This document shows, in pieces, positions 31,119-63,590 of a DNA stretch of 64,000 nt (positions are counted from its first letter, which is position 1; each line of letters opens with the position of its first letter). The stretch comes from Paraspadella gotoi. Its lineage: Eukaryota; Animalia; Chaetognatha. Below the pieces are notes generated by a model, which did no database searches, was not told where the DNA came from, and saw only the letters and a program-made list of their open reading frames with translations. Made by a program: the position numbers and the translations under genes. The DNA lies in the NCBI GenBank assembly GCA_051294375.1, contig CM119263.1, positions 5,144,740 through 5,208,739 on the forward strand, read 5' to 3'.

Positions 31119-31337
31119 TTAGTCCAAAGAAGACTTGCGTTGCTCCATTTGAATCTCTCTTAATCGTTTCTTGAACTCTAGCGTTTTCTGAGGATCAACT
31201 TTGGGAAACAAAGTCTGTTTGATATTGATGACGTCTTTTTCGAAAAACAGTTCCGGTCGGTTGAAGCAATAAAACGCTCCGACGGGAAAGGCCATGTAGC
31301 AGGCCATCTTGAAGACTTCCAATCTCCAATTGCCCAT
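31119..31337 (-). CDS. PET100: PET100 cytochrome c oxidase assembly factor (intronless, 72 aa)
   Basis: MGNWRLEVFKMACYMAFPVGAFYCFNRPELF matches the Pet100 family motif. Confidence 0.85.
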   Translation of the reverse strand: MGNWRLEVFKMACYMAFPVGAFYCFNRPELFFEKDVINIKQTLFPKVDPQKTLEFKKRLREIQMEQRKSSLD

Positions 31338-31563
31338 GACGAAAATGGGAACAGTAGCAGTTAAATTACGGGCTGATCGTCAGAGAATCATTTGATGTAA
31401 TTGAACGCCATTGCTGCGAGGGAATAAGAACAATAAATACAATAAGTACTTAATGAAATAATACAGCACAGTCTAAATCAAGTGAATGCGAAAACACGCT
31501 AACGCAGATTATTACACTCTAAACATCATAAGATCATTTTTTGTCACAGCATGATAGTGGGAT

Positions 31564-33498
31564 TCAACTGTTGGAATTGTCATCGTTCAAATCCGGCGGG
31601 CCAAGAATGCTCTTGGTCGGGCCGAACGCTTGACTCAAAGCATCTTTGGTCGATGCGGAGAAGTCGAGGAGATCGTCCCAATTGATCGGCGACGCCGGGG
31701 AGGTGGAGATGGGGCCGTCGGGAACGAACAGATTGAGGAGTTCCGAAGGATCCATTTGAATCCCCGGCGTCTGGGAGACCAAAGCGTCTTTGATATGGTC
31801 GAGTCCTTGGTCTACGGTCTCGATTTGCTTGCTGAGCGAGAGCGCCAACTCCTGCGGTCGGGAAGTGGACGCCTGCGGCGGCGACGACGACGCTAACAGC
31901 AGAGCGGCGTCGTCGATTTCATCATTGACGGCGAATGGAGGCTTTAAGGTTGATTCTGAGGTGTCCATCTGAAGCAAATCGGAGGCAGACGAATGGGGAA
32001 AAGAAAGATCTAGAGCCGATGGGATGTCGGGAAAAGCAGACGGAGGGAGTGAATCAGAAATTGTTGCAGATGACGCCCCTGACGTCGACGCCTTCACGAA
32101 TTCCGGCGACAAGATCGAGTTAACGTCAAAATACGATGGTGGCGCCGTTGATGGTTGCGACGACGACGAGGCGCCAGTCGAAGATTTCTCACTTTTCTTT
32201 CCTTTAGTTCGACTACCTTTGTTCTTTGCGTTGAGAAGGCTCCGACTGTGATTGCTCGTGATGCCGGGTGAAACAGTTTGGGTAAGGTAATTTTGGTAAG
32301 TCGTCGTCGTATTTGTCGCGGAAGAGAGCGCGGATGTCTGAGGTGAAACAACGCTCGGAATATAAGCCGCTTCGTCTCCCAGAATCAGAAAAGGTTCTTT
32401 GGAATCTTTTTCGTCGAAGTTAAAAATAGAGGATCCGACGGAATCCACGGACTCAGCCGAAGTGGACGGAGAGATGACGAGCATGGCGGATCCGTCCGAA
32501 TTGACGGCAGTCGTCATGACGGGCAGATCGACGACGCTGACGATGGTACTAGGATCGAGCTGGGTTCCGATGTCGTCGGAGGTGATGATGGCGGTCACGG
32601 TATCTATTTTCGGTCCCGGCGTCGATACGCGGGCGGCGTCAGTCAGAGGAGAGGACTCGCGCTGAGGGAGTTCGCTGATGATGGGGCCCGAGAATCTAGC
32701 CGCGCCGGAAGAATGCGGGGTCTCGGCGGGATTCGCCGTTTCGTTTTCCATCAGTGCTGGATATTTGCGTTTGCCGAGTTGCATTGTGGGTCGGGACGAA
32801 CGAGGACCCGTGCTGCGGTTGGGCACCACCGTGTGCATGATGAATTGCAAGAGTTTGTAAGTTACTTGTTGTTGTTTGAGATGCTTTTGTCTTTGGTTGG
32901 CCAGTTCTTGCCACAAGGCGGTGTTCTCCCGTTTTAATTGCTGAAATTGCTCGTTGACCATATCTTGCGTCGCCTGAAGAACTTTTAGGTTTGTCTCAAG
33001 CGAAGTGATTTTCTCCTCAATTTCGACGCGATCAAGCAGCGCCTCTTGCCGCACGGCCGTCGACTGTATTCCTGCTGCTGCAGACGATGGAGTTTTGCGC
33101 TTGATGCGCGACAGCTGCTCTGGTCGATCCCTGATGAAAAACATGTGCTGAAACTCCATATCATCGGCTTCGCCCTTCATGCAGCCTTGTTCGATGCTGA
33201 GGACTTTGCGAAAGCCGTACATGTTCAGTTGTCGGATAAAAGACGAAATGTTGTTGTGTTTATAAAACAAAGGTAGCTGCTCTTTGGCAAATTTTTGTGG
33301 ATCCACGATAAAAAAGCTTTTGCCGTTGGGGCTCCAGTGGACGATCGGGTCGGTCGTCTTATCCTCCACCAAAGCCCACAACTTGGCGATGAAGGCCGAT
33401 ACATTTGGGCCGACGGAGTAAGCGACCGCTGCGGCGTCAGAGGACGAGGGTTGAACGGAACTCGACTCGTCGCCGACTAGAATATCTCGCCCTGGCAT
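31564..33498 (-). CDS. HSF1: Heat shock transcription factor (intronless, 644 aa)
   Basis: HSF DNA-binding domain (AFIAKLW..HWS..FYKHNNISSFIRQLNMYGFRK), HR-A/B (QLKRENTALWQELANQRQKH), HR-C-like segment and an acidic-aromatic C-terminus. Confidence 0.93.
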   Translation of the reverse strand: MPGRDILVGDESSSVQPSSSDAAAVAYSVGPNVSAFIAKLWALVEDKTTDPIVHWSPNGKSFFIVDPQKFAKEQLPLFYKHNNISSFIRQLNMYGFRKVLSIEQGCMKGEADDMEFQHMFFIRDRPEQLSRIKRKTPSSAAAGIQSTAVRQEALLDRVEIEEKITSLETNLKVLQATQDMVNEQFQQLKRENTALWQELANQRQKHLKQQQVTYKLLQFIMHTVVPNRSTGPRSSRPTMQLGKRKYPALMENETANPAETPHSSGAARFSGPIISELPQRESSPLTDAARVSTPGPKIDTVTAIITSDDIGTQLDPSTIVSVVDLPVMTTAVNSDGSAMLVISPSTSAESVDSVGSSIFNFDEKDSKEPFLILGDEAAYIPSVVSPQTSALSSATNTTTTYQNYLTQTVSPGITSNHSRSLLNAKNKGSRTKGKKSEKSSTGASSSSQPSTAPPSYFDVNSILSPEFVKASTSGASSATISDSLPPSAFPDIPSALDLSFPHSSASDLLQMDTSESTLKPPFAVNDEIDDAALLLASSSPPQASTSRPQELALSLSKQIETVDQGLDHIKDALVSQTPGIQMDPSELLNLFVPDGPISTSPASPINWDDLLDFSASTKDALSQAFGPTKSILGPPDLNDDNSNS

Positions 33499-33825: not shown

Positions 33826-34275
33826 TTAACTAAAGTTAATCGCCTTCCCAGCGTACGCGGCAAGATGCGCCTCTCGTAGCGCCTCCGAGACTGTCGGGTG
33901 GGCGTGGCAGACCCGCGCAACGTCCTCGCAGCTGGCGCCATACTCCATGGCGAGCACGGCCTCGTTTATGAGCTCTCCCGCGACGCTGCCGATGAAGTGG
34001 ACGCCGAGAATTTTGTCCGTTGACTTGTCGCTCAAGACTTTGACGAATCCGTCCGAGTCGTCGTTGCATTTGGCACGACTGTTTGCCGTCAGCGGAAACT
34101 TGCCGATCTTGTAGGCGACTTTCGCCTCCTTCAGCATTTCCTCGGTCTTGCCGACCCAAGCGACCTCGGGATGCGTGTAGATGACGGACGGGACGCAGTT
34201 GTAGTCGATGTGGACGGCGCCGCCCGTCATGCCCTCCACGCAAATAATACCCTCGTCCTCGGCCTTGTGTGCCAA

Positions 34276-34306
<31 letters not shown>

Positions 34307-35361
34307 AAGATGTTGGGCACGGACGTTTGGAACCGCGAGTTGACCGGGATCCGCCCCTGGGGATCAGTCTTGATGCCCACGTTCTCCAGACCCAATTTAT
34401 CCGTGTAGGGACGCCGACCGACGCAAACGAGGAGGACGTCGCAATCAATCGTCTCTTTTTTGTCGGGATTTTTGACCGACTCGACGCCGACTTTAATAGT
34501 TTTGCCCGACCGTTCGGCCGACATGACTTTCGTGGCCATTTTAAACTTAAGCCCCTGCTTCGTGAGAATGCGTTGAATGGTCTTGGACACTTCGGCGTCG
34601 ATCCCCACGCCGCCGACGGCCGGGAGAAACTCGATCATTGTGACGTTGGACCCTAGACGCGACCAAACTGAGCCCAACTCCATGCCGATCACCCCGGCGC
34701 CGATGACGATCATTTCCTTGGGAACGGCCTTCAACGACAAGGCGCCGGTGGAGGAGACGACCGTCTCTTCGTCGATGTCGATCCCAGCGAAGGGAGTGAC
34801 TTCGCTCCCCGTCGCGATCATTATGTTCTTTGTCGGAATCTCGTCCGCGCTGCCGTCGGGCTTGACGGCCTTGACGAGGTTGCCCGAAGCGATGGTCCCG
34901 TGACCGTCGACTCGCGTCACCTTATTGCTCTTGAAGAGATGAGCGATGCCGCCGGTGAGCGCCGTCACCGCCTTCTCCTTTTGACCCATCATCACTGGGA
35001 GATTGAGTCTTGGGTTGTCAAAATCGATCCCGCGATTTTTCAAGTCGTTGTGCATCGCTTGATGGAAGAGGTGGCTGTTGTTAAGCAACGATTTCGACGG
35101 GATGCAGCCCACGTTGAGGCACGTGCCGCCGAGGGTGGGGTTCTTCTCCACGCAGGCCGTCTTCATGCCCAGCTGCGCGGCTTTAATGGCGGCGACGTAG
35201 CCCCCGGGGCCGGAGCCGATCACGACCAGATCGTGTTCCTCTAGGGTGGATCCGTTCCGGGCCTGAAGGCGCGTCGCGAAACATGACGAGGGGCCCAGGA
35301 GATCCGTGGGAATGGAAGCCAATGGGGAGGATGTTCGTACGAGTTTTGCCAACGACTGCAT
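33826..35361 (-). CDS. DLD: Mitochondrial dihydrolipoyl dehydrogenase E3 (intronless, ~511 aa from MQSLAK)
   Basis: [30 protein letters not shown] redox disulfide, HAHPTVSE, and a basic N-terminal transit peptide. Start placed at the first ATG after the acceptor-like site. Confidence 0.97.
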
Positions 35362-35596: not shown

Positions 35597-36481
35597 TCAA
35601 TTGTTCAACGAAGCGACGACCGATGACGACGACGCCGAAGCAAGATCTTTCGCGACGTAATAAAAGTAAGCGGTGTGGGCGGCGATGACTCCGAAATTGA
35701 GCATCATGGAGAATCCGTGCAATACGCCGAACCGACGCCGAACTAAATTGTACTTTTCCAGCTGATGCTTTTCGAGGCCGGACATGTCGAACTTCATGAC
35801 CCCGACCTCGTGACCATGGTTGACCCTTTTCTCAAATGCCTGGCAGGTCCACATGGCTTTCGTCGAGGCAGGACCGAAGTAAAGAGTGTTGAGAAGATTA
35901 CCGACGAGTCCGACTGAGAGGAGCAGGCCTGATTCGGAGAGAAAGTGGTGGGCGGTATGACAAGGAATAAGAGAAGGAAAAGAAAAGGAAAAGATGACAA
36001 AAGAAAAAGTGAAAATAAGAGTCGATATGAGTCCTTTTATACCTTTTACTTTCGTGTCTCCCTCCCAGGTCGATGGAGAAAACATCAAAGCGAAAGACCC
36101 CAGCGCCGTGAGCGACGTGAGAGACGAAATGAGAAAGTATCGAGGAAAGAGTTGAGATTGGAGGCGACCGAAGACGTGGCGGGGCAGATGAAAGAACATT
36201 GTAGTTCCGGCCACGGATGAAACCCACAGGTGCATTCCGTACTAAAGAAAATAAATTTGCCTATTACTAAGGAGTAAGGATGTTCATTAATTTGATCAAT
36301 CTGTGAGACATACTTGAAAGGAAAGTGCTGACAAGTTAACCATTTGACTGAGAGTCGAATTGGGAGATGATGGTAATGCAAAGTAAATTAGAGGAGAGGC
36401 GACGCCAAGAGCGGTCACCGCCTCGAGTTCGGTGGAAAGTGAGGCAAAAAACGAGGACATCTTCGAAAAAAGTCCGGCCAT
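35597..36481 (-). CDS. TMEM205: TMEM205-like membrane protein, paralog A (exons 36481-36314, 36241-36043, 35928-35597)
   Basis: GMHLWVSSVAG..LPRHVFGRLQSQLFPRYF and FGVLHGFSMMLN; GT-AG introns with consistent phase. Confidence 0.85.
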
Positions 36482-36965: not shown

Positions 36966-38700
36966 TTAACTTATTTCTTGAATTGTCATATCTTTCGCTA
37001 AATAATAAAAATAGACAGTATGAACGACGGCGACGCTAACATTGAGCAGCATCGAGAATCCATGGAGCTTCGCAAATCTGCGCCGCAACGATTGGTATTT
37101 TTGAAATTCCTTTTGGTCCAAACCGGACATGTCGTATTTCATGACCCCGACTTCGTGGCCGTGATTAACTTTCTTTTCTAATGACTGATACATCGATATA
37201 ACGCGAATAGAAGCTGGCGCGAAGTAGAGAGCATTTAAAACGTTTCCCACCAAACCCAAAGTGAGGAGAGTTCCTGAAATGAGAATCATTCCCTCTAGTA
37301 CAATTAGATTGTCATTTGAATTATAGCATTTTTTTTGTTAAACCTTTGATCTTGGTTTCAGCCTCCCAAATCGAAGGTGGGAACATGAGAGAGTAAGAAC
37401 CGAGAGCGACCATCGACGTCACTGACGAGATGAGAAAATATTGAGGGAAGAGTTGAGATTGCAGTTTCCCGAACATGTGCATTGGTAGGACTCGTCGCAT
37501 AGTCGAGCCAGCGATTCCAACCCACAACTGCATTCCAAACTACAAATACAATGTTAAATTAATAGCTTTACATACATTGGAATTAGATGAGCTTAAAAAA
37601 AAACAAGTTTGAGCAAACTATGTCGGATCTGCCTACGATAATTAAGCGGTAATCAGCTAATCAGATGATAAATCACAATATTTTTAAAAAAATTTTTCCA
37701 CTCACATCATTTTTTGAACGCACATCATTTTTTCAATTTGCATCATTTTTACAATTCGTGTCATTTTTTCAACTTGCATCTTTTTTTAACTTGAATCATT
37801 TTTTAAACTTGCATAATTTTTTTAAATTGCATCATTTTCTAACATTAATTAATTAAAACATTTATTAGTAATCATAAATAATAAAGATTCAAGTGAATGT
37901 GACTTATGTTTTTTCCATTTAAACTCATTTCCACTGGAACGATTCCGTCAAAACTTTATATCTAGCTTCTTCACACTTTCCTACCCGCTCACAAAATTTC
38001 ATCTCAATCTATTAATTCAATTATGATTAATTCGAGTAATTATGGTTTAAAATAATTAAAAAAATTCAAGTAAATGTGATTCATTTTTTTCATTTTAACT
38101 CATTTCCACTTGAACGTTTCCACCGAAACTTTATATCAAGCTTCGACACACACTTTCCTACCCACACACAAAATTTCAACTCAATCTATCCATCCAATTA
38201 TGATTAATTAGAGTAATTATTGGTTAAAATAGGTAAAAAGATTTTAATAAATGCGACTTATGTTTTTTCCATTTAAACTCATTTCCACTCGCACGATTCC
38301 ATCGAAACTTTATATCCAGCTTCATCACACACTTTCCTACCCACACACAAAATCTCATTACAATCCAACCACCCAATCACGAGTTATTGGAGCTTTTTGC
38401 TAAGGTGGGACGGACGGACATAATTTATCATAATTCGATGTTCTGACATGATGTAAGTGATTGCCCGACAATATTGAGGGGGCGGACCGACGGATCGACA
38501 AAGTGAATTATAGAGTCGGGATCTGCTGAAAGCAGATCCGACTAAAAATAAACCACCTGAGAAGAGAGAGACGCCAAATGAACGAATCTGGTAAGGGATG
38601 AGGTTGATGAGGCCGGTAAACCGAGGCATAACATTGGAATGCAAAGGCCGAGACAAGTCAGCGTTTTCAGTTCCGTAGAAATTGACGCCCAAAAGGTCAT
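36966..38700 (-). CDS. TMEM205: TMEM205-like membrane protein, paralog B (exons 38700-38557, 37539-37344, 37273-36966)
   Basis: MTFWASISTELK.. aligns with paralog A exon 1; FGMQLWVGIAG..LPMHMFGKLQSQLFPQYF; RRFAKLHGFSMLLN; same intron positions as paralog A. Confidence 0.85.
37603..38544 (-). mobile_element. Non-autonomous Helentron/DINE-1-like element (copy 2) in intron 1 of TMEM205 paralog B
   Basis: Same termini as 28437-29147 (AAGTTTGAGCAAAC..GTCGGATCTGCCTACGATAATTAAG; AGAGTCGGGATCTGCTGAAAGCAGATCCGAC), GGACGGACGGAC, ~19-bp repeats at 37700-37840 and three ~177-bp repeats at ~37885-38380; sits in A/T runs. Confidence 0.72.
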
Positions 38701-39498: not shown

Positions 39499-42400
39499 TC
39501 AGATTCTCAGAAATATGTCGTCAAGCGGCGAATGTGTCCTCGGGTTCTCAGATGGGTTCACATTTAAATTCTGCAAGAAAGGAACTCGGATAGGAACCGA
39601 CATTGTTTCGTCGTCACTGTTGACGTGGTGGTCGTCGCCGTCGTCGCCCTGAAAGATATTAAACTTTGCAAGTTGTACTTTCTCTAGAAGAATTTCAGTC
39701 AGTTAATTTTAAAAATTAGTACCGGGAGACGAAAACTGTAGCGGCTATCGTCGTTTTCTTGGAGATCCGCCAACTCGGAAGGTGAAATCGAAGAGATAGG
39801 CTAAAAATTACACATTAACAATTAACATTCCTTGACAAAATCGTTTTCATGTCTCAAGAATAGGAAATATCCACCTGAAGGTCAGCTACCGCATGAGTTT
39901 CGGCAAAGACGCTTTCCTCATTATCATATTGCCCTCGAGGGAGGAAGGGCGACCGGTCGTTTGACGAATGCGGAATACCTGAGGAACCTGGGAGAGGGAA
40001 AGACGGAGGCGCCATGGCAACCGGCGAATCGTGGTCTCCTTAAAATTTGTACATAAAATCGGGTTAATGGCAATGTTGTTGCAGAATTATTTCATTTGGA
40101 TCTAGGTACTAATTGCAAAACCTGAAAGATCGTGTAGGGCGTATTGATTGTCGTTTTCGGGAAAATGTCTTCGATGAAGCGAAAAACCAGAGGCGTCCAT
40201 AGAAGGGTGCTAAAAAATAGTAAAATATAGTAAAATGTAAAATATTTGTATATAGTGTAATTAGTCGTTGGGATACGGACTGACGATTGCTCGCTCACTT
40301 TTTTCCTAAAATGCAGCTCGTGTAAATAGACGGCGCTCAAACCCATGTCGGTGACAGCTAATTCCCTTTGCATCGCTTCAGAAGGAAAAGGCCCATTAGC
40401 TCCCAAACCGACGGTCGACTCGATCATCGAGGCCCCTAAATAGAATATAAATAATATATAAGAAATTATAAAAACATTCACAAAAAATATATGCTGTCTT
40501 GGTTAATACCATTAGGTGAGCTGATCAAGCTGTTGAGAACGCCATTGCTGGCAGTCAATGGACCGTCATTCTGATAGACGCCCGCGCCGCGCGCTAATTG
40601 CATAGGAGGGCGACTGGCAAAGGAAGGGTGATCGGAGGCGATGCCCGAACGGCCGATTGGTGCTGTGATCGAATGAAGAATGCGATTTCAAGATAAAAGT
40701 AATACCGAGCTTGGTAAGTAAATTAAGTTATAAAAAAACCGTTGCGACTCAAATTGACCTCAGTCATCAAGATGACCTTAGTCACAAAGATGCCGTTCAC
40801 TAAACTACTGTGAAGCCTCAGTCGTTGTCGGCTAACTTCTTCTCCTTCTTACATTATGAAGTTTCTCTCATTCGAATCTCAAGCCAAGATCTAAAAATAC
40901 ATTTTTCTCTCTTTTTAATCGATGTCGAAATCATTATTATCAACTACATTTTAATCTTATTGTATCTTCTTCTGGTATATCGTCCGTTATTATTGTTTTG
41001 AATATTTGTAATACGTTGTAAAAACGTAGAACCTCTTTTGTCTTTGTTATTGACTTTTAAAGTAGTTGATATAAAATTAATTAAATTAAATCTTTGAGAC
41101 GAGGGGTACCAAAGTTTCTTTTTAATTCTTTATTTTAATATTATTTCAATATTTTAAGTAAAAATAGGTAAACATAAATCGCACGTACCAACTGATTGAT
41201 TAACGCTCGTCAACATGGAATTGTAGGTATAACTCTGCCCGACGCCCGGTCCAGCCGATGACAGCGACAGAAGAGAATTGAAGAGAGCCGTGTCTTGAGG
41301 GTCCGTAACGCCATTAACAACTAAGGCTGCCTCTTTTTGTGCTTGGTCCTGAATTCAAATCATATTATCCTATAGCTGAAAAATTATATGAAGCTGGTAC
41401 AACCAATAAAACAATTATCCATTTTTATGGACAAGTCGCTAAGAGGACTGAAGAGTGCTACCCGCAACTTCTTTTACCACCTCTAGGAATGGGTGGTCCT
41501 GGACTTGGAACCAGGCTTAAGGGTTTTCCAGGCCCCCAAGGCGGTTTACGGCCGACCTCACACTTCCCGCAGGATAGGTACCATTGGGTATTGATCCCGG
41601 TACCTAATGGTCGTGAACTGATGGTATTACTCAATGAGCCACCGGATCACGATTGAAGATTGCATGCTTATAAGAGGGGTAATCATATTGCAATGCACGA
41701 CAACTTTTACTCCCAGATATAATTGCCAATGTTACTGACTTTGACTTCTTTCAGGAAAAGACTACAGTCTTCGGGAGGTGTCCAGTCCGGGTTTGTAACA
41801 TGGAAATGCATCAACGATAACTCAGTCTTTCCATCATCAGCCTGAGATACAAAGTTGATAAACTGATTAGATTGACTTCGGTAATAGTTGGCTTATTATG
41901 GTGAGGAAGGTGTAATGTCTAAATTTGATTCTGCTTCATACAAGAACTTTCCTCATTGACTTAGTCTTATTGTAAAGGTTAAAACCAAATTGAAACTCAC
42001 CGGCTCACTTTGTGAGCGATTATTGACTTGCGTCGCTGTTGAATTCATCTTGGTAGGCTCAAACCATTGGGGGTTGCCATGGCGACGAACGTTCATCAGC
42101 GAGAAGGAGCAGACGTCGCCGACGCCAATTACGTCCACAGTAAAATTTCGAAAAAAATCCACAATCTCAAGCGATCTGACAAGATAATTAAGATTTTTTA
42201 ATCGTTATCTTTATTGCCTACTATTAAGGGTAGCAAAAATTTATAAGAAAAAAAATATCTTATTGCTATAACGTTACCTGTTCTTCAGCACAAAGCAGAG
42301 AATAAACGGAGTAACGATCGGTGACAGGAGCTCCTCCAACAAATGCACAAATTTATATTGAAACAATCGCGAAAATTCATCGCGCGTTTGCCACTTGTGG

Positions 42401-45065
42401 GCGTTACCCTGGGGTTAAAGCATCAAGATAAATAATACTAAATATTTATTATTCATAATCATATAAAAAATTAGGAAACGTTACCTTCCAGTGGTCAGGC
42501 ATGTAATGAATATGTGAAAGAACCGTGGTAAGAAGTTTTTCTGGGCACCAAATTAGATGCTCGTCAGGAATGAACTGACGCAAAATCGTCACCGCAGCAG
42601 CGAGAACAGTCATAACAGTGAGGACGTGTTCAACTAGTCGAAAAGAAAGAATATGAAAAAGTATTCCACGCTAAAATTCAAAGTCAATTACCTGTAAGAA
42701 CATCTTCGTCTATTACAGTCAAAATTACGAGAACACTGAGAATGGATCCACAAAAGAAAGAAACGCTTTTCGCGAATACAGTTGTCCAGGGAGACATAAA
42801 TAGGGTCATGTAACGGGACGCCGCTATATAAAAAAAATTGTTTTGACCATAAAGTAAGGAATTGGGCAAAGTTGGAACGCCCCAACCCACGAAGAATACA
42901 TCTTGTTTAAATTGGGCAAAGGTAAGTAAGACCAACCTTTGTATCCTCGACTCAGTCTAGTTGAGAACTCGTGGTCAAGCTCGTTGAAGTGACGCAAATA
43001 GATTGAAGCGTAATGTGACCAAGCCCTCATCCCGAAAAACCCGGGCTCCCGTTTGATCATTTCCGCATAATTGTAAAAAGAGTAGAGTATTTGCCACAGC
43101 AAAATTACAGGACAAAGGACAAAGTTGGCGATTCCTTAAAAACAAAAAAAGAATGTACAGATTTACCAGAGGAGGATTTAGCTTGCCGTTCCATTTTTTT
43201 CTTCCTCTTCTTTCCTACTCCTCCTCCTGCCCCTCGGTATATTTTATCTAGCGATACATACTCTAGTATCTACTCTTCGCGAAATATATTATTTTCGCTC
43301 TATTTCCTCACGCCTTCAATACCACTCGAGTTTACTTTTAATTAAACAAAACTTTTCCGAGCCTCTCCTTTCCTACCAATGTAAAAAATTTTTTTCGCCA
43401 ATTGGTCTGCTAAGTCTCTCCGTTTGTGAGTATTTTTGAAATCTTCCTTCAATTGATAGCTGTTGGCAAAAGGAGCCCATGGTCCCCAAAACAAAATCAT
43501 GTCGAGGTTGTAACGATATCCGGCCGTAATGAAAACGTATCGTCCGATGAATGGAAGATCAAATTTGACTGGGAGAACGTTTTTGTTTACCATTGCCGCG
43601 GTGTAATTCTTAAAACGAAGAATTCTGTCAAAACGCAATATAATTTCAGATTCACTTTTAAAGGAAAGCCGTGTTTTGATGATTACAGGGTTAAAGACTT
43701 AAGGTAGCGGTAGCCGACCAAATTCAAATTTTAATGGGAACAGCATTAAACTAATCCATTATTGGTATTAATTATAGTGTTAAAATATTTTTTTGCAAAA
43801 ATGTTCCGAACCATGAGTAATTCGCTAATTAATATTATTATATTGCTACATAATGTTAAAAAAATTTTTGGATATTTTAAGTTTTTTTAATTGATTCTGA
43901 TAGAGCTTAAAAAGTTAAGCAAAAAATATAATTACAACTTTTTAAAATTTTGATATTTTATTACTAAAAATTAGTAAAAACTGCTAAAATCATCGGATGA
44001 TGATGATGATGATTTTTAAGGTTTTTCTCAATTTTAACCCACTTATCATCAAAATATTGAAAAAAGAATTATACTTTGTGTAGATAACTTATCATAAGCT
44101 ATTTGAATCTGCTTTTAAAAATAAAAAATTTCAAAAAAAATTTTTGACATTTCCTATCTATAAATAATTATTAAAAAATTAATTACTAATGCTTCTTGCC
44201 ATTTTAGAAAATTTTGCTCCATTGAAAGTTTTCTCAGAAATGTATGAAGTTTCATTTGGAAAGGTTCCCCCAAATCAAACTTCTGACCCACCCCCCATTG
44301 ACGAAGTTTGGCTCTACTTAAGGTTAGAGATTAAATAAACGCACAAATAGCTCAAATTTTTAAACAGCGTCATCGAACCTATGATAAATGTCGAGTTGAG
44401 TAAGCTCGGATTTGTGGATGCACATTTGATGCTCCTTTTGCACCTCAATTAGCCTGGCCTGAACTTCGTGCCAAGTCATGTTGTGAAGGTCCGAACTGGA
44501 AACCTTTAACACGCTGCAATAGAACGACCGGATCTCCATGTACATCATCAGATGATACATCACTTTTACGATGCGGAAGATCCAAAATGATCCCGCGATA
44601 ACGAGACCCAGCAGAGTTAAACTGAAAACAAAGAAAGTAAAGTTTATATCGAGTGATTAACTAGTCCACAAAGGCAATTTACCTATGAAAACTATGAATG
44701 GAGCAAGATTTGATGCAGTCGGAAATGGTGACCTTGGTGTGATTGGTCTGACCGTGCGAGGTATGAGGGTGAGGCACATCTTTGTCGCCGAACAAAACCG
44801 CGTAATCCACGCATTCGATCAGAAAACTGGTGAGAGTCATGACGAAGAGGAATTGACAAATGTCGAGGACATCGCCGAGCAAGATGCACATGAATCCTCG
44901 TTTTTGATGATATTTGTAAACTCGAGAGAAAAACTCGTCCAAATTCCTCACGTGATTCCATTTCGTCTTCGTCGCCTCATCTGGAGCTGGAAAGGGCAAA
45001 GACTCAACGCCGTCTCCATCGTGATAGCCGCTGAGCGATTGGTAGCCTGTCTCGAATGCGCTCAT
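39499..45065 (-). CDS. ATG9: Autophagy-related protein 9, multi-exon
   Basis: KWNHVRNLDEFFSRVYKYHQKRGF, WHEVQARLIEVQKEHQMCIHKSELTQLDIYHRILRFKNY, YLRHFNELDHE, VDFFRNFTVDVIGVGDVCSFSLMNVRRHGNPQW. The 3' exons are less certain; stop inferred at 39499. Confidence 0.93.
41480..41655 (-). mobile_element. Possible tRNA-derived SINE in an ATG9 intron
   Basis: Minus strand reads GATCCGGTGGCTCATTGAG (A-box-like) ... GGGATCAATACCC (B-box-like), followed by a GC-rich body. Confidence 0.35.
43700..44325. mobile_element. AT-rich foldback-like insertion in an ATG9 intron
   Basis: TTAA near both ends; degenerate inverted arms (~43820-43890 vs ~44115-44190). Confidence 0.3.
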
Positions 45066-47759: not shown

Positions 47760-47793
<34 letters not shown>

Positions 47794-50090: not shown

Positions 50091-51984
50091 TCAAGTTCGG
50101 CAAGAATTAATGGCAGCGTCGACGTCGGGCAGATTCTGGATCAAAGGATCGATATCGTCCGACTTTTTCGACGGAGACAAGAGACGCCATCTGGTGGAGA
50201 AGAAGACGACGAAGGCGACGAGTCCCGCGCCGACGATCATAAGGCACAACTCCGCGATGGTCATCATCAAGAGCGGCGTCGTGACGCGACTCTTTAGCTG
50301 ACCCGCGGAATCTTCGTCCAGAGCCGCAGTCTCTTCAATCCAAACCATTGGCAAGATGAGATCGTCGGGGAACTTTTGGAAATATTTGGACCAGACTGGA
50401 TGGTTTTTCACGAAGGCGTTGACTTGGAGCCGTTTGGCCGCGTCCATTACTGTCCCTAGATTTGAAAGGTGATAAAACTGTGAGGCGAGGAGAGAGTTTT
50501 AACCGGAAAAGCCACGACTCACCAGTCCATGGTTCCATCTTGAGATAAGTCTCGTGTTCTTCGCGATTCGGATGTAGACCCAAGATCCTGGATTGATACT
50601 CCTCATCCGCCTGATACAAATGCGGCAGGGAAGAGATGACCGGCGCGCCCATTTGACAACTGGACAGATTCAAGACTCCGGCTCCGAGGCAGTGGGCATC
50701 GTCCGGCGTGCAAAAGCAGAGGTTGCCCGGGTTGACGGAAGTGTTGGCGAAGACGTTGACGGGGACGACGAATCGATAGCCGGGAATTCCGTGGACGCTC
50801 GTGTCGGATTCGAAATTCAAGTGAATCGATCTGAAAATCGACATTGAATTTTGTTCTTTACTTTCTTTCCCCCAAATATTGTGAATCATTTGTGAAAATG
50901 ACCAGATTTTATAGAATTTGAACCTGAAATATGGTCTTGCTGTATTATTATCTTTTAAGAGAGATGGAGGGCACCATAGCCAGTCCAAAGTCAGGGGAAA
51001 GCAAACTTATTTATCTAATGAATAAATGATTTCTTTTATATTGGTTGTCCATTGCGGTTACTTACAGTGAGAGAAACAAACCGCTGCCGCCATCGCAAAA
51101 TTTTCGCTCAACAAAAGAGAAAAAACGAACCTGCAAATGTCCGTCGAGTAGAGATAGAGCGTGTCCTCTCGCGAGATAAATGGATGATAAAATGTCCCGT
51201 CGGTTCCGTTGATGGCATTGCAGTATGGAGTTCGCCAGACGTTCAATGCGGATCGATTGTTCCACGAAAGGATCGTCGCCTCCTCATCCACGCCCCCTAG
51301 TCCCGTACGAACGAGATATTCTCCGTCGTCGCTCTCGTTCTTGTTCAAGAACCAACCGAAATCCGTGAAGGGAATTAGATCCGGTTTTATTTTTTTCAAC
51401 TCGATCAATAGAGGAACTGGATAACCCCAAAGCCATTGCTCCACCGTTCGCTCCTCGAAGAGGCTCGACTTCGTTTGCCAAAAGATCAGCTCCAACGGGG
51501 TCCTCTCGTAAAAGGGCAAGCCCGTCGTTTCCTGCAGAACCGTCAAAAAGGGAAAATTGGGGAGTCTGATGATGTCGGATTCGTCGCCGTCACTGAGGTC
51601 CGGTTCGAAGCTAAAGACGCGATTCTCTCGATAGGAGACGCTCTCTCCGTCGTCGTGAAACGTCACGTTCTGTTTGTGACGCTTCTCCGAGTAGACGTAA
51701 GGTCCCTTCTCTAGAAGAAGCGGCTTTTCGCCGGCGAAAATCTCCGACGGGTTGACGACGTGAAAGAGGCGGAACTTGACGAAGATCGGGACTGGCACGT
51801 CGGTCCACGCGCGGAAGATGGCGTTGGAGTCGTCGGAGGCGGAAGCGGAGGCGGGATCGCGGATCGGGAGACTGGAGGCGATCTCGGAATCGATTATCTT
51901 ACGTAAAACGGGAATTAAGACGATACCGGAGACGAAGAGGAAAAGTCCGACGAACAATATTATTGTCAGTTTCATTCGCGTCAT
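50091..51984 (-). CDS. CD36/scavenger receptor class B, LIMP-2(SCARB2)-like (exons 51984-51131, 50830-50523, 50455-50091)
   Basis: N- and C-terminal TM helices, EKGPYVY, CNAINGTDG, DICRSI, SLPHLY; C-tail DDIDPLI fits the [DE]xxxL[LI] lysosomal sorting motif. Confidence 0.88.
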
Positions 51985-53084: not shown

Positions 53085-56071
53085 CTACATCAACTTCCAG
53101 AGATGGCTCGTGATACCCAGAGCCCCTCCTCGCAAGAATCTCACAAAATTGTCCCCAACCAATGGACCTGAAAGGAAATTAAAACTGGGAAAATCATAAA
53201 GAGAAGAAACAAACCTTTAAAAAATCTCACCCATCGCGAAAAGATTCGACTCTTTGGTGCATTCGTAGGTGAAAACGTTAATTTCGAGAGGATTGGTCGC
53301 AGAGTCGATGGTTGTAGGTTCTTTGGCGATTCCAAGAAGGCGTCCCTCCTATGACATAGAAAAACGATTAGGATCGGAAATAATTCTCTTTCACCCCGAC
53401 CAACCGTGCAGACCTGCTCGAGAAAATCGAGTGTGGGTCTCGCGCCTGCGCAGATGAGGACTCCACCGCATTTGATCTTCTTCTCCGTTTTGGTCTCGCG
53501 TTCGCGAATGACGACTTCGCCGCCTTCTAGAAACCTGGACACAGTATAGCCTGTGTTGAAGGAAGAAAAAAGGTAAGACAAATATTGACTAGCAACTTTG
53601 GTTCATTTCAGGTGAGTGATGAGATTGCAGCAATTTAGAATATGCCTCACATCTTTTGATTTTATTTTCTGAAAAGTTTTTTTTTATTTTATGACTATTT
53701 TTAATAAGTTTTAATAATGGTTTAATTTTCCTTCCCTACCTTGAAAAGCGAGATAGCATTGCGTACAACCGCCGCTCTCAGGATCCTGTTGCCCGTTCAT
53801 CATCGCGAATACTTTGTGATACTCCGGGAAAAGCGCCGGAGGAAGATTGTGAAAGATAAGGGAAGGATTGTTGCACTTGCAACGGAAGACGTGAACGACG
53901 GGAATTCCTTTGGATCTGGTTCAGAATAAATTATTATCGATTTAGGCTTCGCATGACCCACCTTATCCAATACCCCACCTAACCTAACCCACCCTCACCC
54001 TCCTCCCCAACCAATAATAACCTGGCGATGGTGATGGCGTCCGCGGCGGTGAGGCCCGCCCCCACGATCATCAGCGGAAGCGAAGAGTCGCAGACGTGAG
54101 AGAGCGGCCTGGAGCTTCTGGAGCGCCGCCTGGGTCGCTCCTCCTCGACGACATCGCTCGACCACTCTTCCTCGCCGGTCCTTTTGCTCTTCTTCGTCTT
54201 GGCCACCGGAACTAAGAGGCCACCGACGATGGCCTCCTCCAGTTCACCAAAGGAATGCATAACGTAAGGGTAATCGTCTTCGCCTTCAACCTGGAGGAAA
54301 TCGCGATGTCAGTTGAGACGAAAAACGAATAACTTTGTAAGAGATTTAAGTATCTCAATCTCATTTACCTACTGTGTTTTGATTAGGCAATTAATAGTTA
54401 TAGCTTTTTAATCTGGTACTGTTAGATAAATAATCTTTAATTCCTTTATGGAATATTGATTCTACATCGGTCCGCCTCGCCACGACCGCGACGTCGATCA
54501 ATCGATTACCGCGAACAAAAGGGCAACTTGGTAATAAGGCGTATCCTTGCAATATTATTTGACTAATCCCTAAGCAATAAGCATTTGAGAATATGAATCT
54601 CTTATCAAATACGAATACGAATAAAATTCAGTAATTTGAGAAATTAATATAAAAAAATATTTATCTCTGATATAGAAACTTATCCATAATAATCAAATCA
54701 AACTAAATCTAATGAAGCAAAGAGTTAATTTAAATAACAGAAAAAGCTAGATAAAGAACTAACTTTAACAACTCGAAGTCAAAGTTACAGCCGCACTTGA
54801 AATCCCCTCACCTCCAACTTGCGCGGTCGATCGTGAGCGCCGGTGGCCAGCACCACATGAGCGGCTTTGGTGATTCTCTCTTCCACCTCCGTCCGTCCAT
54901 TCCCGACGTATTTGCGGTAAGTGGACCTCACCTCCCAATATCCTTTCTGCGAGTGATAACAACCGCATTTGTTGCAAACTTCTTCTTCACCTGAATCGAA
55001 ATTGAATCGGTTGAAATCAACAGTTGTAACAGTTATAATAATTAATAATTGGAATCAGGACGAAAAATCGAATCATTAGCAACGTTAATTATTAATTATG
55101 TAAAAACGAAAACAGAATTAGCTCAGTCCTAACCAGTTTCCGAATCGACCAGCTCTGAGCAAGGGTTGACTTTCTTCACCGAAGTGACGGTGGTGTAGCT
55201 GTAAAAATTTCTTTCCAAATCGTTTTGTCGCACGTAGTCGAGATAGTAAGCGGCGATGTCTCCCACCTAAGAATAAAACCCAATCGAATCAATTATCGTT
55301 CGCTGTTTGTCACATGCAGTCGGCAACGCCACGGGCGCGGGGTGCAAAGGCTTACTTTGACCCTTTGCCCGATGGGCTCCTTCGGGTGCGAGTTTTGTCT
55401 CCAAGACTGAAAATCCATCCCGGGAAGTTCCATCCAAGATCCGGCGGAAACCGTGAGCAAGGAAGACTCGATAGTGTTCCAAGATCCTCCTAAGAGCAAC
55501 GACAGAATGTAAAGCAAACACAGAGACCATTTCCGAGAAATGCTCCCCAACTCACCCGGAGCTCCTCTTCCGAAGACGGCGTAGTCGATGGCTTTCTCAG
55601 GAAAATGACGAAACTCTACGCAAGAGGGATGCTGATCGCCAACGTCTGCCTTGGGCTGCGTCAACGCATCAAAGAGGACGGCCAATGGGTTGGAGGAACG
55701 ACCTTCCAGGCCTTCGGAGAGGAAGGCCAAGTTTTGCTCGACCAGGGAAATCGAGGCGTCGATCTCTGGAAGGCACAATATTGAGTCAGTCTCTGTCTGT
55801 CTCTCGCCGTCTCTATCTCTCTCTCTTTCTTACCCGACAAGTGCCACTGCAGTATCTCGTCCGGGTGGGAGACTCCATTGTAAAAGGGCCAATTCCCAGA
55901 AAGGAAATACGCAAGGCAGATGGCCGAAGGTCCGTTGCCGATGACGGCCACTTTGGTCTTGGCGGGTGGCGCGTCCAGACCCGTGTCGGAACAGGCCCGA
56001 CCCGCGGCCTCCTTCGTTTCCGAGGTCGTTGATTCGGAGACGGCGGCGACTCCCTCCGTCCCGGATGACAT
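53085..56071 (-). CDS. OSGIN: Oxidative stress-induced growth inhibitor (OSGIN1/2-like) flavoprotein, multi-exon
   Basis: VIGNGPSAICLAYFLSG, LSEGLEGRSSNPLAVLFDAL, SWMELPG, IVGAGLTAADAI, GPLVGDNFVRFLRGGAL. Confidence 0.88.
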
Positions 56072-56549: not shown

Positions 56550-57281
56550 TCACTTGACTTTTTCACCGTCTTTGTCGTCGTCGTCGAAAATTACGTGAGA
56601 CTGCAACATGTCGAAGAAGAACGAGACAGAGTTGTCGAATAAAACTCTAAATCGGAGGGGAATGAGATAAAAGTTGACGAACTGAGCGGGCGGCCAAATG
56701 CACCACTCGGCCGTGTAGAGGAAGACGCCTTTGGTGAGGATGTTGTCGAGTATCCCTCGCCAGGGAGTTCCCTGCATGACGCCCAACGTCGTCAGAAACA
56801 CGGAGAGACAAAAGGGAGAAAAAATAATCTGATCCACGAGGATTTTCTTTATGATGGCGACGGGATTTTTGCCAGGCATCAGTCGGTGGAGCAAGAGGTA
56901 CCAAAAGTGGCAACAAGGTCCGATGGAGAGTCCGGCGAGAGAGAGGTTGAGCGTTCGACGCCGATCGAATCCTTTTCGTTGCCAGGATTGGACGACTGCG
57001 TCGCCGATTCCGTTCATGACGCAACAAATGAGAGTGTTCGAGTAGAGGAGATTGTGGTCGGCGAAGGCGATTTTCGCCGCGCGACGAATGAGGTTCCTTT
57101 CGTCGCGGATCCATTTCGTCGAGCGACCAACGACGTTGCGATCGTCACGCGACCATTTCGCCGCGCGACGAATCAAGTTCGACTTGGAGTCTCGTTCCGA
57201 CTTCGCGAATTCGCGGATCGAGAGAAACTGACGACGACGTCTCAAAAAGTTTCGAGACGTCGGCAGAAAGTTTTTCATCAT
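56550..57281 (-). CDS. Mpv17/PMP22 family protein, MPV17L2-like (intronless)
   Basis: LLYSNT..GIGDAVVQ, GP..HFWYLLL, KKILVDQIIFSP, WCIWPPAQFVNFYLIP. Confidence 0.88.
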   Translation of the reverse strand: MMKNFLPTSRNFLRRRRQFLSIREFAKSERDSKSNLIRRAAKWSRDDRNVVGRSTKWIRDERNLIRRAAKIAFADHNLLYSNTLICCVMNGIGDAVVQSWQRKGFDRRRTLNLSLAGLSIGPCCHFWYLLLHRLMPGKNPVAIIKKILVDQIIFSPFCLSVFLTTLGVMQGTPWRGILDNILTKGVFLYTAEWCIWPPAQFVNFYLIPLRFRVLFDNSVSFFFDMLQSHVIFDDDDKDGEKVK

Positions 57282-57379: not shown

Positions 57380-58033
57380 TCAGTCTGCCAAATCGGATTT
57401 GATGCCCACTTTTTTCAGTTCTTCGATCAAGTCTCCTTCCTGATGCATTTGGATCATGATGTCGCAGCCGCCGATGAATTCTCCGCCCATGTAAACCTGA
57501 TGGCGGAATAACAAGACCAGTCACAGTTTATTCCAACAAATTATTGGTTCCTGCAATTGCAAAGACACTCATGCCTTCATACCTGTGGAATTGTGGGCCA
57601 GTTGCTGTACTCTTTGATACCTTGTCTCAATTCCTCGTCTTCAAGGACGTTGTAAGAATCGAACTTTGTGACTCCGTGCATTCGAAGAATCTGACAAACT
57701 GCGTTGCTGAACCCACACTGGGGTTGTTCAGGGGTTCCTTGTTTTTAAAATTTAAAATTTATAACAATGTATTGAAAGACTGGATAAGGTCGACTACTTA
57801 GATTAGAGATCACTCTCACCTTTCATAAACACCACGACGGGTTTCTCCTGCACCAGACTGTCGATGTGGTTCTTGATGGAAGGCTCTTCCGAGTACCAGC
57901 GTCGCTGAGGCAAAATCCGCGGATTCCAAGCGACTTTCAAGACGACGCTTTGACGCGAGGCCGTGGCGACGATCCCTCGAGCGGCCAAAAGAGGCAAACA
58001 TTTCCTCAAAGATCGATTCAGTTTCGTCGTCAT
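57380..58033 (-). CDS. GLRX5: Mitochondrial monothiol glutaredoxin 5 (3 exons)
   Basis: VVVFMKG|[19 protein letters not shown]|[14 protein letters not shown]; N-terminal transit peptide. Confidence 0.93.
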
Positions 58034-58104: not shown

Positions 58105-58512
58105 TCAGAAATCGGTGACTCTCCCTTTTCTCTCCCAATCTCCGAATCGAGTGGGTTCGACTCCTTTAGGTCCGCCTCTTTCTCCAGTGACCTCGTTGAC
58201 CCAATCGTCCAAGGGCGAATCTTCGTCGTTAGTTTCGTCTTCGTCCTTCGTCTCCTTTCGCCTCTCTTCGGCCTCCGCAGCCGCCGCCGCAGCCGCCGCA
58301 GCTGCCGCCTCCTGCTTCTTCCCTTCCTCCAAATCGAATCTCCCAACGGGAGTGAAGGGCTTCTTGAGCGGAGGCGAACTTTGCTTCGCCCCGACGACGT
58401 GGGAGGTGGCGAAGGATCTAAGGTTCGGACGGGAGTGAAGTGACGACGACGACCACACCGACGACGATGAAAGTCGCGGGAGACAAAAGATCAAAGAGAA
58501 TCGAGAAGTCAT
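58105..58512 (-). CDS. SDHAF4: Succinate dehydrogenase assembly factor 4 (intronless)
   Basis: C-terminal VNEVTGERGGPKGVEPTRFGDWERKGRVTDF is the Sdh8/SDHAF4 signature. Confidence 0.92.
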   Translation of the reverse strand: MTSRFSLIFCLPRLSSSSVWSSSSLHSRPNLRSFATSHVVGAKQSSPPLKKPFTPVGRFDLEEGKKQEAAAAAAAAAAAEAEERRKETKDEDETNDEDSPLDDWVNEVTGERGGPKGVEPTRFGDWERKGRVTDF

Positions 58513-58758: not shown

Positions 58759-60104
58759 TCAGTTAGACCTCTCTCCCCCGACCTCGATCCCGTTCCCTTT
58801 CCACCACGTCTCGGCCTCAACCCTCCAACGCCACCAGGTGACGCGGCATCTGTCCCACCAGGCGCCGACCGAATCAAACGCCGGACGAACGTCGAGAATC
58901 GTGAAGCGAAAGTCTTTAGTCACTTCGCCGCCGTCGTAATAGTCGATGACGTAGCGGACCTAAGAAGTGTGAGAAAGAGCGTTCGCGTTATGAATGGGAT
59001 AGCGCCACGCCCCTTTCCATTTCACTCGCCTCTTTTCCGTTTCGATCGACGATCCAATCATGACGATCGAAGGGCAACTCGTATCCCAACACCCAGTGGC
59101 GGAAACGCGCGCGCGGCGAATATTCCTGCGCTTTTCCGCCGAAAGATTTCAGTTTGGGATTTCGACATTCGTCGGCGCGAAGAGCCTCCCACTTGAGAAC
59201 CTCCTGAAACCGACAGGAAAAGATCGGGAATATTTGTTAAAATAGCTACGTACGTTCTCACGTTTCTCGCAGCCAAATCCAGGGAAGGTTCTTCCTCAAA
59301 ACAAAATGACAGCTACCTTATGTCTAACCGCGAATGACCCAAAAAAGTCTAACTCTTCAAATTTTGATTGGATACCGTTAAGAGAATTTTCTCCTTTCAC
59401 CTGCCAGGCGTCTTCGTTATTTCGATTGTGAATTTTGATGATGTTATTCATGTCCTCAGGGGCGATGTCTTCGTCTCTCCATCTCCATCCTGTTAAGAGA
59501 GCGAACAACAATTAATTGAATCATGGATGGATAAATGGATGAGTTAATTTATACTTAATTATGTAATTGAATTATTGAATAGATTAATAGATGGAGGAAT
59601 TATTTAACACGAAAGGATATATGAATGAATGCCCCCCCTCAATGATGACCGACCCTTTCTGAGCATGGCGTTCCAAAACATCTGCTCGGAAGGATAGACC
59701 CAAGTCTCTCCATCGGCTTCGGCCTTGGGAATCGTAGATCTCTCGCGTTCGGTTGAGAGAGGAAAGGGTTGTCCCGGCGACGGCCGCTGATTCGGCGGCG
59801 GCATCAAGTTCTTCGGGTCAACGTCCTCCTCTTTCTCTCCCGGCGCCAGAATTAGCGCCGGCGACGCCGACGACGCCGCGTTGAGTTTCTCGGCCATCGG
59901 ACATTCGCTCGGGACTCGGTCGAGGCTTCGGAGGTGGTCCTCCACGGAGATCGAAGGGGCGGCGGCGGCGGCGGCAGGAGCAGCAGGGACTGCAGCGGCA
60001 GTTTTGGTGTGCATGGGGCATTGTGGGGGCGGGGATGAAGCGGGAGGGGGAGCGACTGACGCTGCCACCGCCGGCGAAGCTTCGGTCGAACTTACTCCGC
60101 CCAT
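58759..60104 (-). CDS. HCCS: Holocytochrome c synthase (cytochrome c heme lyase), 4 exons
   Basis: CPM heme motifs, [54 protein letters not shown]. Confidence 0.95.
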
Positions 60105-60224: not shown

Positions 60225-62352
<2,128 letters not shown>

Positions 62353-62477
62353 TTTCTCATCTCTGAAAATGTAAAATCGACTTAAAAATAGGACGGCGAA
62401 TTGCGTGTACAAAAAAGGATGAAATAAAATTGGAACAAGGTATAACAAATATCCAAAACAATTTTTTAAAATATGGT

Positions 62478-63590
62478 TCACAAGGTTTCTTTGTCATTGG
62501 AAAGTCTTTTGCTACGTCGACGATCGGAAATTTCTATTTTCGTCTCCCGTTTCTTGGATTTTCGCATCAGCCCTTTGGTTTTTACGTCCTTCTCTACTTT
62601 CATAGTTTTTATTTCGTCGAGGTCAGTTTCAATTTTCTCCATTTTTACATTTCCTATATCGTCTTTTTCGCTTTTGATCTTTTTAACTTTATCCTTTTCC
62701 ACTTTAAATTTCTTCTCATCTCCCTCCCCTTTTGCCATCTTTCTCCTCGTCTTCGCCCCCTCTCCTCCGTCCCCTTTGGGCGCCAAAGGCCCCGCATTTC
62801 CCAGGAACCAAATGGTTCTCCCTTTTCGATCTTTCATCGATCTCATTCCGTCTCGTCCGTAGCATCGAAGCCAACGACCGAATCCCGAATCCCATTTCTC
62901 CTTTGACTCTGAAAAGTATCCTCCTCCTTCGTCGATTCCGATCTCGATCACTTCCTCGGCCAATCCACGAATCAGGTCGAAAACGTCGCCGACGGCCGAC
63001 GCCGCTCCCAACGCCGTCCTGGCGCGCTCGAACGGCGCCGTTCCGAGCTGAAATAGCGCCTCGGCTCTGAGGTAATTGCCGACGCCGTTAAAGAATCTCT
63101 GATCGAGCAAGAGTTCGCAAATGGGCGAGTCAAAGGCCTTTTCTTCCAGTCGTTCGAGAACGCGATCCCGCGCCGCCGCCGTCTCCGTCACGACGCAGGG
63201 TCCCCGCGCCGGATCCCAATCGGCGCCGGGAAACCAGCGACCGAATCGACGGGGGTCGACGAAGCTCAGCGTCTGGAGTCCGTCCTTGGAAAAGAACCGA
63301 AGGTGAGAGTGTTTGGGCAGCGTGTCGGCGGAAGTAAGTTCGAACTTTCCAGACATTCCGAAATGAAAGAGAATGGAGAGGGTGTGGTCGGCATTGTCAA
63401 CGTCCGTCAACGTCATCTTCATCTCTTTTCCTCTCGACTCTGCGTCGATGCGATAATCAACGCAATTCCAAGTTACATCCGGGTTTTTGACGCTGACGTC
63501 GGATTTAACGACAGCTCCACCGAAGGAGACGCGGCGCCCGATCGATCGGACAAGTAATGCCGCCAAGCGGAGCTCAGGACCCTCCGGCAT
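62478..63590 (-). CDS. NEIL1: Endonuclease VIII-like DNA glycosylase NEIL1 (intronless, 370 aa)
   Basis: MPEGPEL N-terminus, SRGKE, HFGMSG, FVDPRRFG, LLDQRFFNGVGNYLRAE (H2TH), basic C-tail. Confidence 0.94.
   Translation of the reverse strand: MPEGPELRLAALLVRSIGRRVSFGGAVVKSDVSVKNPDVTWNCVDYRIDAESRGKEMKMTLTDVDNADHTLSILFHFGMSGKFELTSADTLPKHSHLRFFSKDGLQTLSFVDPRRFGRWFPGADWDPARGPCVVTETAAARDRVLERLEEKAFDSPICELLLDQRFFNGVGNYLRAEALFQLGTAPFERARTALGAASAVGDVFDLIRGLAEEVIEIGIDEGGGYFSESKEKWDSGFGRWLRCYGRDGMRSMKDRKGRTIWFLGNAGPLAPKGDGGEGAKTRRKMAKGEGDEKKFKVEKDKVKKIKSEKDDIGNVKMEKIETDLDEIKTMKVEKDVKTKGLMRKSKKRETKIEISDRRRSKRLSNDKETL

Follow-up and report, generated by a model that had tools for sequence, protein, structure and literature searches.

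Introduction

Do sixteen neighboring genes on one strand of a 64,000-nucleotide stretch of DNA (the window, below) form one giant operon, several operons in a row, or a run of independently transcribed genes? On the minus strand, between positions 63590 and 31119 of the window, 16 open and intact reading frames lie head to tail, and an earlier note on this DNA had interpreted them as one very long operon, or three to four chained operons, resolved by spliced-leader (SL) trans-splicing. SL-resolved operons are already known in chaetognaths (arrow worms), as that note had stated and as has been published (PMC2481426, PMC12460157). The DNA very likely comes from this phylum, and it is the scale and the content of the block that would be new. 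Operonic organization of most of the block appears probable. Our analysis favors, with some reserve, two or a few operons in a chain, each of which would be read as one precursor and resolved by SL trans-splicing. The division that we consider most likely is into a unit of 10 genes from NEIL1 to GPT, probably starting past the window end, and a unit of 6 genes from ATG9 to PET100.

Gene content and orientation of the block

In transcription order, the genes encode NEIL1, COX15, HCCS, SDHAF4, GLRX5, an Mpv17-like protein, an OSGIN-like protein, a CD36/SCARB family protein (SCARB), CYB5R, GPT, ATG9, two TMEM205 copies (a and b), DLD, HSF1 and PET100 (Table 1). The gene models were curated by hand from their coordinates, and the run of 16 consecutive minus-strand genes described previously was borne out by them. 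All 46 introns within the coding sequences (CDS) have GT-AG or GC-AG borders. A Pfam family was assigned to 15 of the 16 genes (24 pieces were scanned, 19 with a match); the OSGIN-like gene was the sixteenth to be named, via the full-length relative P0162, which carries the OSGIN name in Atlas. The names SDHAF4, GLRX5, MPV17L2, GPT and TMEM205 are presumed from family membership. A protein search with HSF1 returned no close relative, the best listed identities being 40-48%, and a PDB search with an OSGIN exon gave nothing informative.

The stop-to-ATG gaps, read directly from these models in transcription order, are 125, 120, 246, 71, 98, 478, 1100, 274, 318, 1563, 798, 484, 235, 327 and 226 nt, identical in all 15 cases to the values listed earlier; five are shorter than 230 nt. 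Coding sequence makes up 57% of the block. Neighbors lie on the same strand with no opposite-strand gene between them, and only two plus-strand open reading frames (ORFs) of at least 60 aa that begin with ATG lie mostly outside the minus-strand exons.

The odds of 2^-15 previously attached to such a run were overstated, as they take no account of how many places in a genome could show one: among 21,072 randomly oriented genes, chance alone should yield 0.32 runs of at least 16 genes, and with a same-strand neighbor rate of 60-70%, about 4 to 30 such runs are expected. Co-orientation alone argues little for operons, because about 0.3 chance runs are expected per genome, and the case is carried by spacing and RNA instead.

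RNA coverage of the intergenic gaps

Four public sequencing runs were listed, of which X1 matched 0.94 of the sequence words, whereas X3 and X4 shared 0.00. X1 contigs were compared with positions 44500-64000 and 30500-39800, and X2 contigs with 44500-64000. That X1 is RNA was deduced from its splice joints, not from the run record: GT/GC-AG introns account for 12 of the 15 joints displayed at 44500-64000, where 35 more joints exist beyond those shown, and for 6 of 6 at 30500-39800. Six joints of the OSGIN-like gene are seen in these contigs. X1 behaves as spliced RNA of the source species. The depth of contig bins over four short introns, examined as a control, agreed with the empty-intron expectation to within 0.1, so that unspliced DNA is not evident at these introns. 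X2 gave only short pieces of low depth, including a perfect 170-nt match in the OSGIN/SCARB gap and one spliced joint, and was not taken as independent support.

In the X1 contigs, 7 of the 15 gaps were bridged in one contig piece, one was bridged by length arithmetic and three were nearly abutted. At the start of the block, an unspliced contig spans 62371-64000 over NEIL1, with 941 nt more past the window end if collinear, and in the NEIL1/COX15 gap the upstream contig stops 8 nt short of the first exon base predicted for COX15. Since the RNA over NEIL1 does not stop at the window end, the block probably starts beyond it, which agrees with the earlier suggestion that it continues past the window. 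The SDHAF4/GLRX5 gap is the one bridged by length arithmetic. If collinear, a 4921-nt contig would reach to 58538, where an AG immediately precedes it, and length accounting of this contig reproduced its displayed offset exactly (2788 of 2788). Single contig pieces bridge both the GLRX5/MPV17 and MPV17/OSGIN gaps (56238-57494), the CYB5R/GPT gap (48036-49012) and the ATG9/TMEM205a gap (38557-39647). TMEM205b, DLD, HSF1 and PET100 share one 5431-nt contig, free of mismatches, that crosses all three gaps between them, and the RNA end beyond PET100 at 30848, within an AATAAA, is likely the end of the block.

In the OSGIN/SCARB gap, upstream RNA fills 1013 of 1100 nt, to 52072, and stops 25 nt short of the next first exon; a 790-nt SCARB contig matches up to 52046, exactly at an AG, and then carries 9 unaligned nt. 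TMEM205a RNA ends at 36581, about 40 nt past an AATAAA and 60 nt short of the predicted TMEM205b first exon. Contigs bridge or nearly abut most gaps, and the long gaps are therefore mostly untranslated region (UTR); stop-to-ATG distances overstate the spacers because RNA fills most of the longer gaps. At all three junctions where both sides could be placed, the spacing from RNA end to next exon is 8, 25 or 60 nt, which leaves too little room for a promoter. Spacing below 250 bp, the operon rule of a genome-wide study of Paraspadella gotoi (PMC12460157), was found or implied at 13 of the 15 junctions. The SCARB/CYB5R gap, 274 nt from stop to ATG, likely falls below 250 nt once UTRs are counted, and the GPT/ATG9 gap exceeds the limit. 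Length arithmetic on the 5' ends of the ATG9 and CYB5R contigs reached no clear acceptor.

Spliced-leader evidence

Metagenome contigs were scanned with DLD, and 80 of 141 confirmed matches were kept, the best of which (L001, an intronless, mRNA-like contig of the DLD orthologue) shares 81-82% protein identity with the window protein. The leader on this contig was seen directly: its first 16 bases, TTTCAATTTGTTTAAA, are identical to the last 16 nt of chaetognath SL2.0 (Table 3 of PMC2481426), and the orthologue of gene 14 is therefore leader-spliced in a relative. This 16-nt motif is absent from the 64-kb window. Among the 80 DLD loci it had two matches, at the 5' end of L001 and within the CDS of L003; the latter was rejected as chance.

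Among the 120 matches listed in a protein search with DLD, four proteins stand at 83-86% identity, and named animals reach at most 77%. In a tree of 39 rows, comprising 35 of these 120 matches picked for taxon spread, L001-L003 and the window protein, the window DLD, L001 and these four proteins form one clade (100/99), with the rotifer Brachionus as sister (93/93, not starred). Named arthropods and molluscs fall outside the clade in this tree, which holds no named chaetognath, nematode or tunicate; a nematode or tunicate origin is made less likely by the leader match alone. This one-gene tree places the window in a lineage with SL trans-splicing, very likely Chaetognatha, through the clade that its DLD shares with the leader-bearing L001.

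Searches for other traces of the leader machinery returned no leader-derived peptide at the starts of 167 proteins and, in an Rfam scan of the window, no match at gathering score and no SL RNA or snoRNA family. The best-scoring upstream acceptor of DLD would put the first exon base at 35487, and in HSF1 an AG immediately precedes the ATG (acceptor distance 0). Across the block, first exon bases are predicted at 62362, 60134, 58538 or 58653, 57293, 56382, 52046, 49846, 48462, 45267 or 45228, 36520, 35487, 33498 and 31413.

One operon, a chain of operons or separate promoters

We suggest that RNA polymerase II would start upstream and read through successive genes, and that the 3' end of each upstream mRNA would form shortly ahead of the next unpaired AG acceptor, at a distance of a few bases up to some tens. 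To this AG, the spliceosome would join the capped chaetognath leader of about 36 nt, so that the downstream gene would need no separate promoter to acquire a cap at its 5' end. The promoter of the second operon is placed, tentatively, between ATG9 and a miniature inverted-repeat transposable element (MITE) in the largest gap. The phylum, single precursors, a leader on each gene of this block and the place of the split are what we infer.

The MITE reported earlier in the GPT/ATG9 gap proved real, with inverted arms at 45773-45948 and 46328-46503, and its length is 731 nt rather than 727. GPT RNA extends to 46489, the edge of the MITE, high-copy contigs pile up over the element, and the gap is unbridged in the contig rows displayed. 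With the MITE removed, about 500 nt separate the end of the GPT RNA from the 5' region of ATG9. A CCAAT-box scan of the window gave 4 matches versus 2.9 expected, so that the match at 45477-45485 in this interval is not significant. An identical second CCAAT-like motif lies at 30319-30327, 800 nt past PET100, with no gene found adjoining.

Could all 16 genes, and more upstream, belong to one SL-resolved operon of more than 33 kb, with a single promoter past the window end and the MITE as a passive insertion in a spacer? We regard this as possible but unlikely. In its favor, 14 of the 15 gaps are bridged, nearly abutting or shorter than 275 nt, and upstream of NEIL1 the RNA extends beyond the window. 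Operon transcript assemblies in Macrostomum are reported to split at repeats (PMC8629364), so that the single break needs no promoter. Yet the three junctions that could be measured have 8-60 nt, far less than the roughly 500 nt left at GPT/ATG9 without the MITE; this gap also holds a CCAAT-like motif (not significant), and the maxima given in the cited papers are 6-9 genes. Chained operons fit somewhat better because the gap is unbridged and holds about 500 nt of free DNA without the MITE. Of the two forms proposed earlier, the chain is thus retained, and the single unit is less favored. The bolder version, a functionally biased polycistron of at least 16 genes and 33 kb with a single promoter, in other words a mitochondrial/respiratory-chain assembly operon that also carries HSF1 and ATG9, seems doubtful.

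If, instead, most genes had their own promoters in the upstream 3'UTR or last exon, possibly with individual leaders and a few true operon pairs at most, the contigs would have been fused through UTR overlap or read-through. In favor of this, single molecules are beyond what contigs can show, trans-splicing is reported for about half of chaetognath genes but a place in operons for only 18% (PMC12460157), our acceptor weight-matrix test was negative, and the bridged ATG9/TMEM205a gap has what looks by eye like a GC-box stretch near 39070. We nevertheless judge such hidden promoters improbable: up to 15 would be required, 5 of the 15 stop-to-ATG gaps are below 230 nt, and at 3 of 3 placeable junctions RNA ends 8-60 nt from the predicted next first exon. 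A chance same-strand run in a compact, gene-dense region, with no trans-splicing at all, appears highly improbable. It has on its side the roughly 0.3 runs of at least 16 genes that random orientation would produce in a genome of 21,000 genes, but leaves unexplained the abutting RNA ends, the leader of the DLD orthologue and the SCARB tail at an AG. Nor is the genome compact throughout, since positions 1-23000 of the window show no obvious genes.

Several observations count against a chain of SL-resolved operons as well. The leader comes from a relative at about 82% protein identity and concerns 1 of the 16 genes, and leaders are reported on non-operon genes of chaetognaths, too (PMC12460157). 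No leader letters were read on the source species' own transcripts in the X1 contigs. The SL-operon interpretation of the earlier note is partly supported, by 11 of 15 gaps bridged or nearly abutting, by the very likely chaetognath lineage and by the leader of the DLD orthologue. Of the leaders that the note would look for at the upstream AG of each gene, the 9-nt SCARB tail at an AG is the one candidate. The letters of this tail are undisplayed, and it could be a cis-spliced exon. The sole 5' tail displayed at a gene start, 31 nt joined at 36518 to the start of the 5431-nt contig, 2 nt inside the predicted TMEM205b exon, is not a chaetognath leader and has no match in the window; a chimeric join may account for it. 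When the 100 nt ahead of each of the 16 ATGs were scored with an acceptor weight matrix derived from the 46 introns, acceptor-like sites were not in excess: 190 of 500 shuffle sets reached as high a score, and there was no difference between the sense and antisense strands (p=0.40). All RNA evidence is from the single run X1, in which the COX15/HCCS, HCCS/SDHAF4 and SCARB/CYB5R gaps (3 of 15) fall outside the displayed contig rows. Contigs are assemblies rather than molecules, a contig over two genes proves no single transcript, and overlapping UTRs or background can fuse contigs; a contig of 205 nt and depth 2.9 downstream of PET100 indicates that background exists. Assemblers can remove weak intron paths and short leader tips, which weakens the intron control. 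Finally, the break at GPT/ATG9 may reflect only the repeat.

Comparison with known operon systems

In chaetognaths, leaders and one Spadella cephaloptera operon (RPS14-PCNA) with a 3-base spacer were described (PMC2481426), and in Paraspadella gotoi 10,197 of 21,072 genes are reported to be trans-spliced, with 18% of genes in operons, a longest operon of nine genes and no operon-specific leader (PMC12460157). The operon list of that study may already include genes of this block. The chain of operons proposed here resembles these cases in its same-strand housekeeping genes, in upstream RNA ends near the next acceptor, in the leader family found on the DLD of a relative, and in spacers of 8, 25 and 60 nt, close to the 3 nt of S. 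cephaloptera. It differs in length, since the <250 bp rule applied to RNA-defined ends likely chains 10 and then 6 genes here, as against the maximum of nine, and in content, as none of its genes belongs to the ribosomal protein, ubiquitin and proteasome classes given for the longest chaetognath operon (PMC12460157).

Abutted operons of Ciona intestinalis likewise have little or no spacer before the downstream acceptor and no operon-specific leader (PMC2760879, PMC7986045), but their median spacer is 1 bp, compared with 8-60 nt here (upper bounds), their leader is different, and their maximum is six (PMC2760879) or seven genes (PMC7986045). Caenorhabditis elegans and Macrostomum lignano share polycistronic housekeeping clusters resolved by a leader, and repeats can occupy the spacers; unlike the present block, C. 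elegans operons hold 2-8 genes and those of Macrostomum up to 9, with spacers of about 100 bp (PMC8629364). C. elegans uses a dedicated SL2 for downstream genes, whereas chaetognaths are reported to lack one.

Even on the cautious reading, one unit would have about 10 genes, as against the nine of the largest operon published for chaetognaths. This suggests that operon counts based on distance undercount long units where 3'UTRs are long or gene models are fused. Were all 16 genes a single unit, it would exceed all of the published animal maxima cited here; narrow phrase searches of the literature found no animal operon larger than these maxima. Oikopleura operons contain up to 11 genes; if this number is right, a 10-gene unit would be no animal record, and one of 16 would.

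Functional content of the block

Eight of the 16 genes (COX15, HCCS, SDHAF4, GLRX5, the Mpv17-like gene, GPT, DLD and PET100) are taken to be mitochondrial from the localization of their human orthologues, and the first five of these are consecutive. The binomial probability of 8 in 16 is 1e-6 at a mitochondrial background of 6%, 0.007 at 20% and 0.07 at 30%, values that depend on the background share assumed for chaetognath operon genes and on a block picked after the fact. The mitochondrial bias is a lead and not a result. In C. elegans, operons are enriched for mitochondrial genes, a point for which literature searches gave no source; genes of C. elegans operons are reported to be rarely related by function (PMC2776167). 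The block offers a direct test of functional grouping in animal operons, through its mitochondrial cofactor and assembly genes, and of how the stress regulator HSF1 might be controlled if it lacks its own promoter.

The CDS of NEIL1, the Mpv17-like gene, DLD and HSF1 are intronless (coordinates in Table 1). Orthologues of these four are intron-rich in most animals, and retroposition into an operon or intron loss are possible explanations.

Features of the locus and its surroundings

Table 1. Coordinates of the genes and other features of the block, in transcription order
Feature	Position	Strand	Description
Gene 1, NEIL1-like DNA glycosylase	62478..63590	-	1 exon, 370 aa; Pfam Neil1-DNA_bind, Fapy_DNA_glyco
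COX15 predicted first-exon acceptor AG	62364-62363	-	From gene model
Gene 2, COX15 heme A synthase	60225..62352	-	7 exons, 459 aa; Pfam COX15-CtaA
Gene 3, HCCS cytochrome c heme lyase	58759..60104	-	4 exons, 304 aa; Pfam Cyto_heme_lyase on 3 of 3 exons scanned
Gene 4, DUF1674 protein (SDHAF4, name presumed)	58105..58512	-	135 aa; Pfam DUF1674
Gene 5, glutaredoxin (GLRX5 type, subfamily presumed)	57380..58033	-	3 exons; Pfam Glutaredoxin
Gene 6, Mpv17/PMP22 family (putative MPV17L2-like)	56550..57281	-	243 aa; Pfam Mpv17_PMP22
OSGIN-like 5'UTR intron	56237-56170	-	68 nt; exact length accounting
Gene 7, OSGIN1/2-like flavoprotein	53085..56071	-	10 coding exons, 558 aa; relatives at 75-83% identity
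SCARB candidate trans-splice acceptor AG	52048-52047	-	Edge of 790-nt contig
Gene 8, CD36/SCARB family	50091..51984	-	3 exons, 508 aa; Pfam CD36
Gene 9, NADH-cytochrome b5 reductase-like (CYB5R)	48629..49816	-	4 exons, one GC-AG intron; Pfam FAD_binding_6, NAD_binding_1; contig joints
Gene 10, alanine aminotransferase-like (GPT, name presumed)	46629..48310	-	3 exons, 502 aa; Pfam Aminotran_1_2
MITE within largest gap	45773..46503	.	176-nt imperfect terminal inverted repeats
CCAAT-box-like motif, MITE-to-ATG9 interval	45477..45485	+	Candidate promoter element; lead only
Gene 11, ATG9	39499..45065	-	16 exons, about 901 aa; Pfam ATG9
Gene 12, DUF4149 protein (TMEM205-like copy a, name presumed)	36966..38700	-	Pfam DUF4149; contig joints
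Gene 13, DUF4149 protein (TMEM205-like copy b, name presumed)	35597..36481	-	Pfam DUF4149
DLD 5'UTR intron	joint 35367/35453	-	85 nt; X1 contig
Gene 14, DLD dihydrolipoyl dehydrogenase	33826..35361	-	511 aa, intronless CDS; Pfam
Gene 15, HSF1-like heat-shock factor	31564..33498	-	644 aa, 1 exon; Pfam HSF_DNA-bind; named matches are HSF
Gene 16, PET100	31119..31337	-	72 aa; Pfam Pet100

The left boundary of the run is formed by a plus-strand, multi-exon SET/MYND (SMYD-like) gene at about 23067-26490, which converges on the block; its motifs were recognized by eye, and Pfam gave SET only at E=0.011. In positions 1-23000, GA/TC microsatellites take up 9% of the bases versus 0.2% in the gene block. 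The same region contains N gaps and a stretch of about 2.2 kb that occurs about three times (~4050-9400) with error-like small indels between the copies, possibly as a result of duplication in the assembly. Repeat elements that are related to each other and contain short internal tandem arrays lie at 37600-38500, in the 1017-nt TMEM205a intron, and at 28400-29140, downstream of the block; X1 contig depth over the former is very high.

On the minus strand at 62360, an out-of-frame ATG lies 2 nt past the predicted COX15 acceptor and 8 nt ahead of the true start. In the OSGIN-like leader, a 22-codon upstream ORF (56256-56120, minus strand) runs across the 68-nt 5'UTR intron to a stop codon about 50 nt upstream of the main ATG, and is possibly a translational control element. 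A second, divergent X1 contig of depth 998 matches parts of the aminotransferase gene (46905-48163) with many differences, and it probably represents an expressed aminotransferase paralogue elsewhere in the genome.

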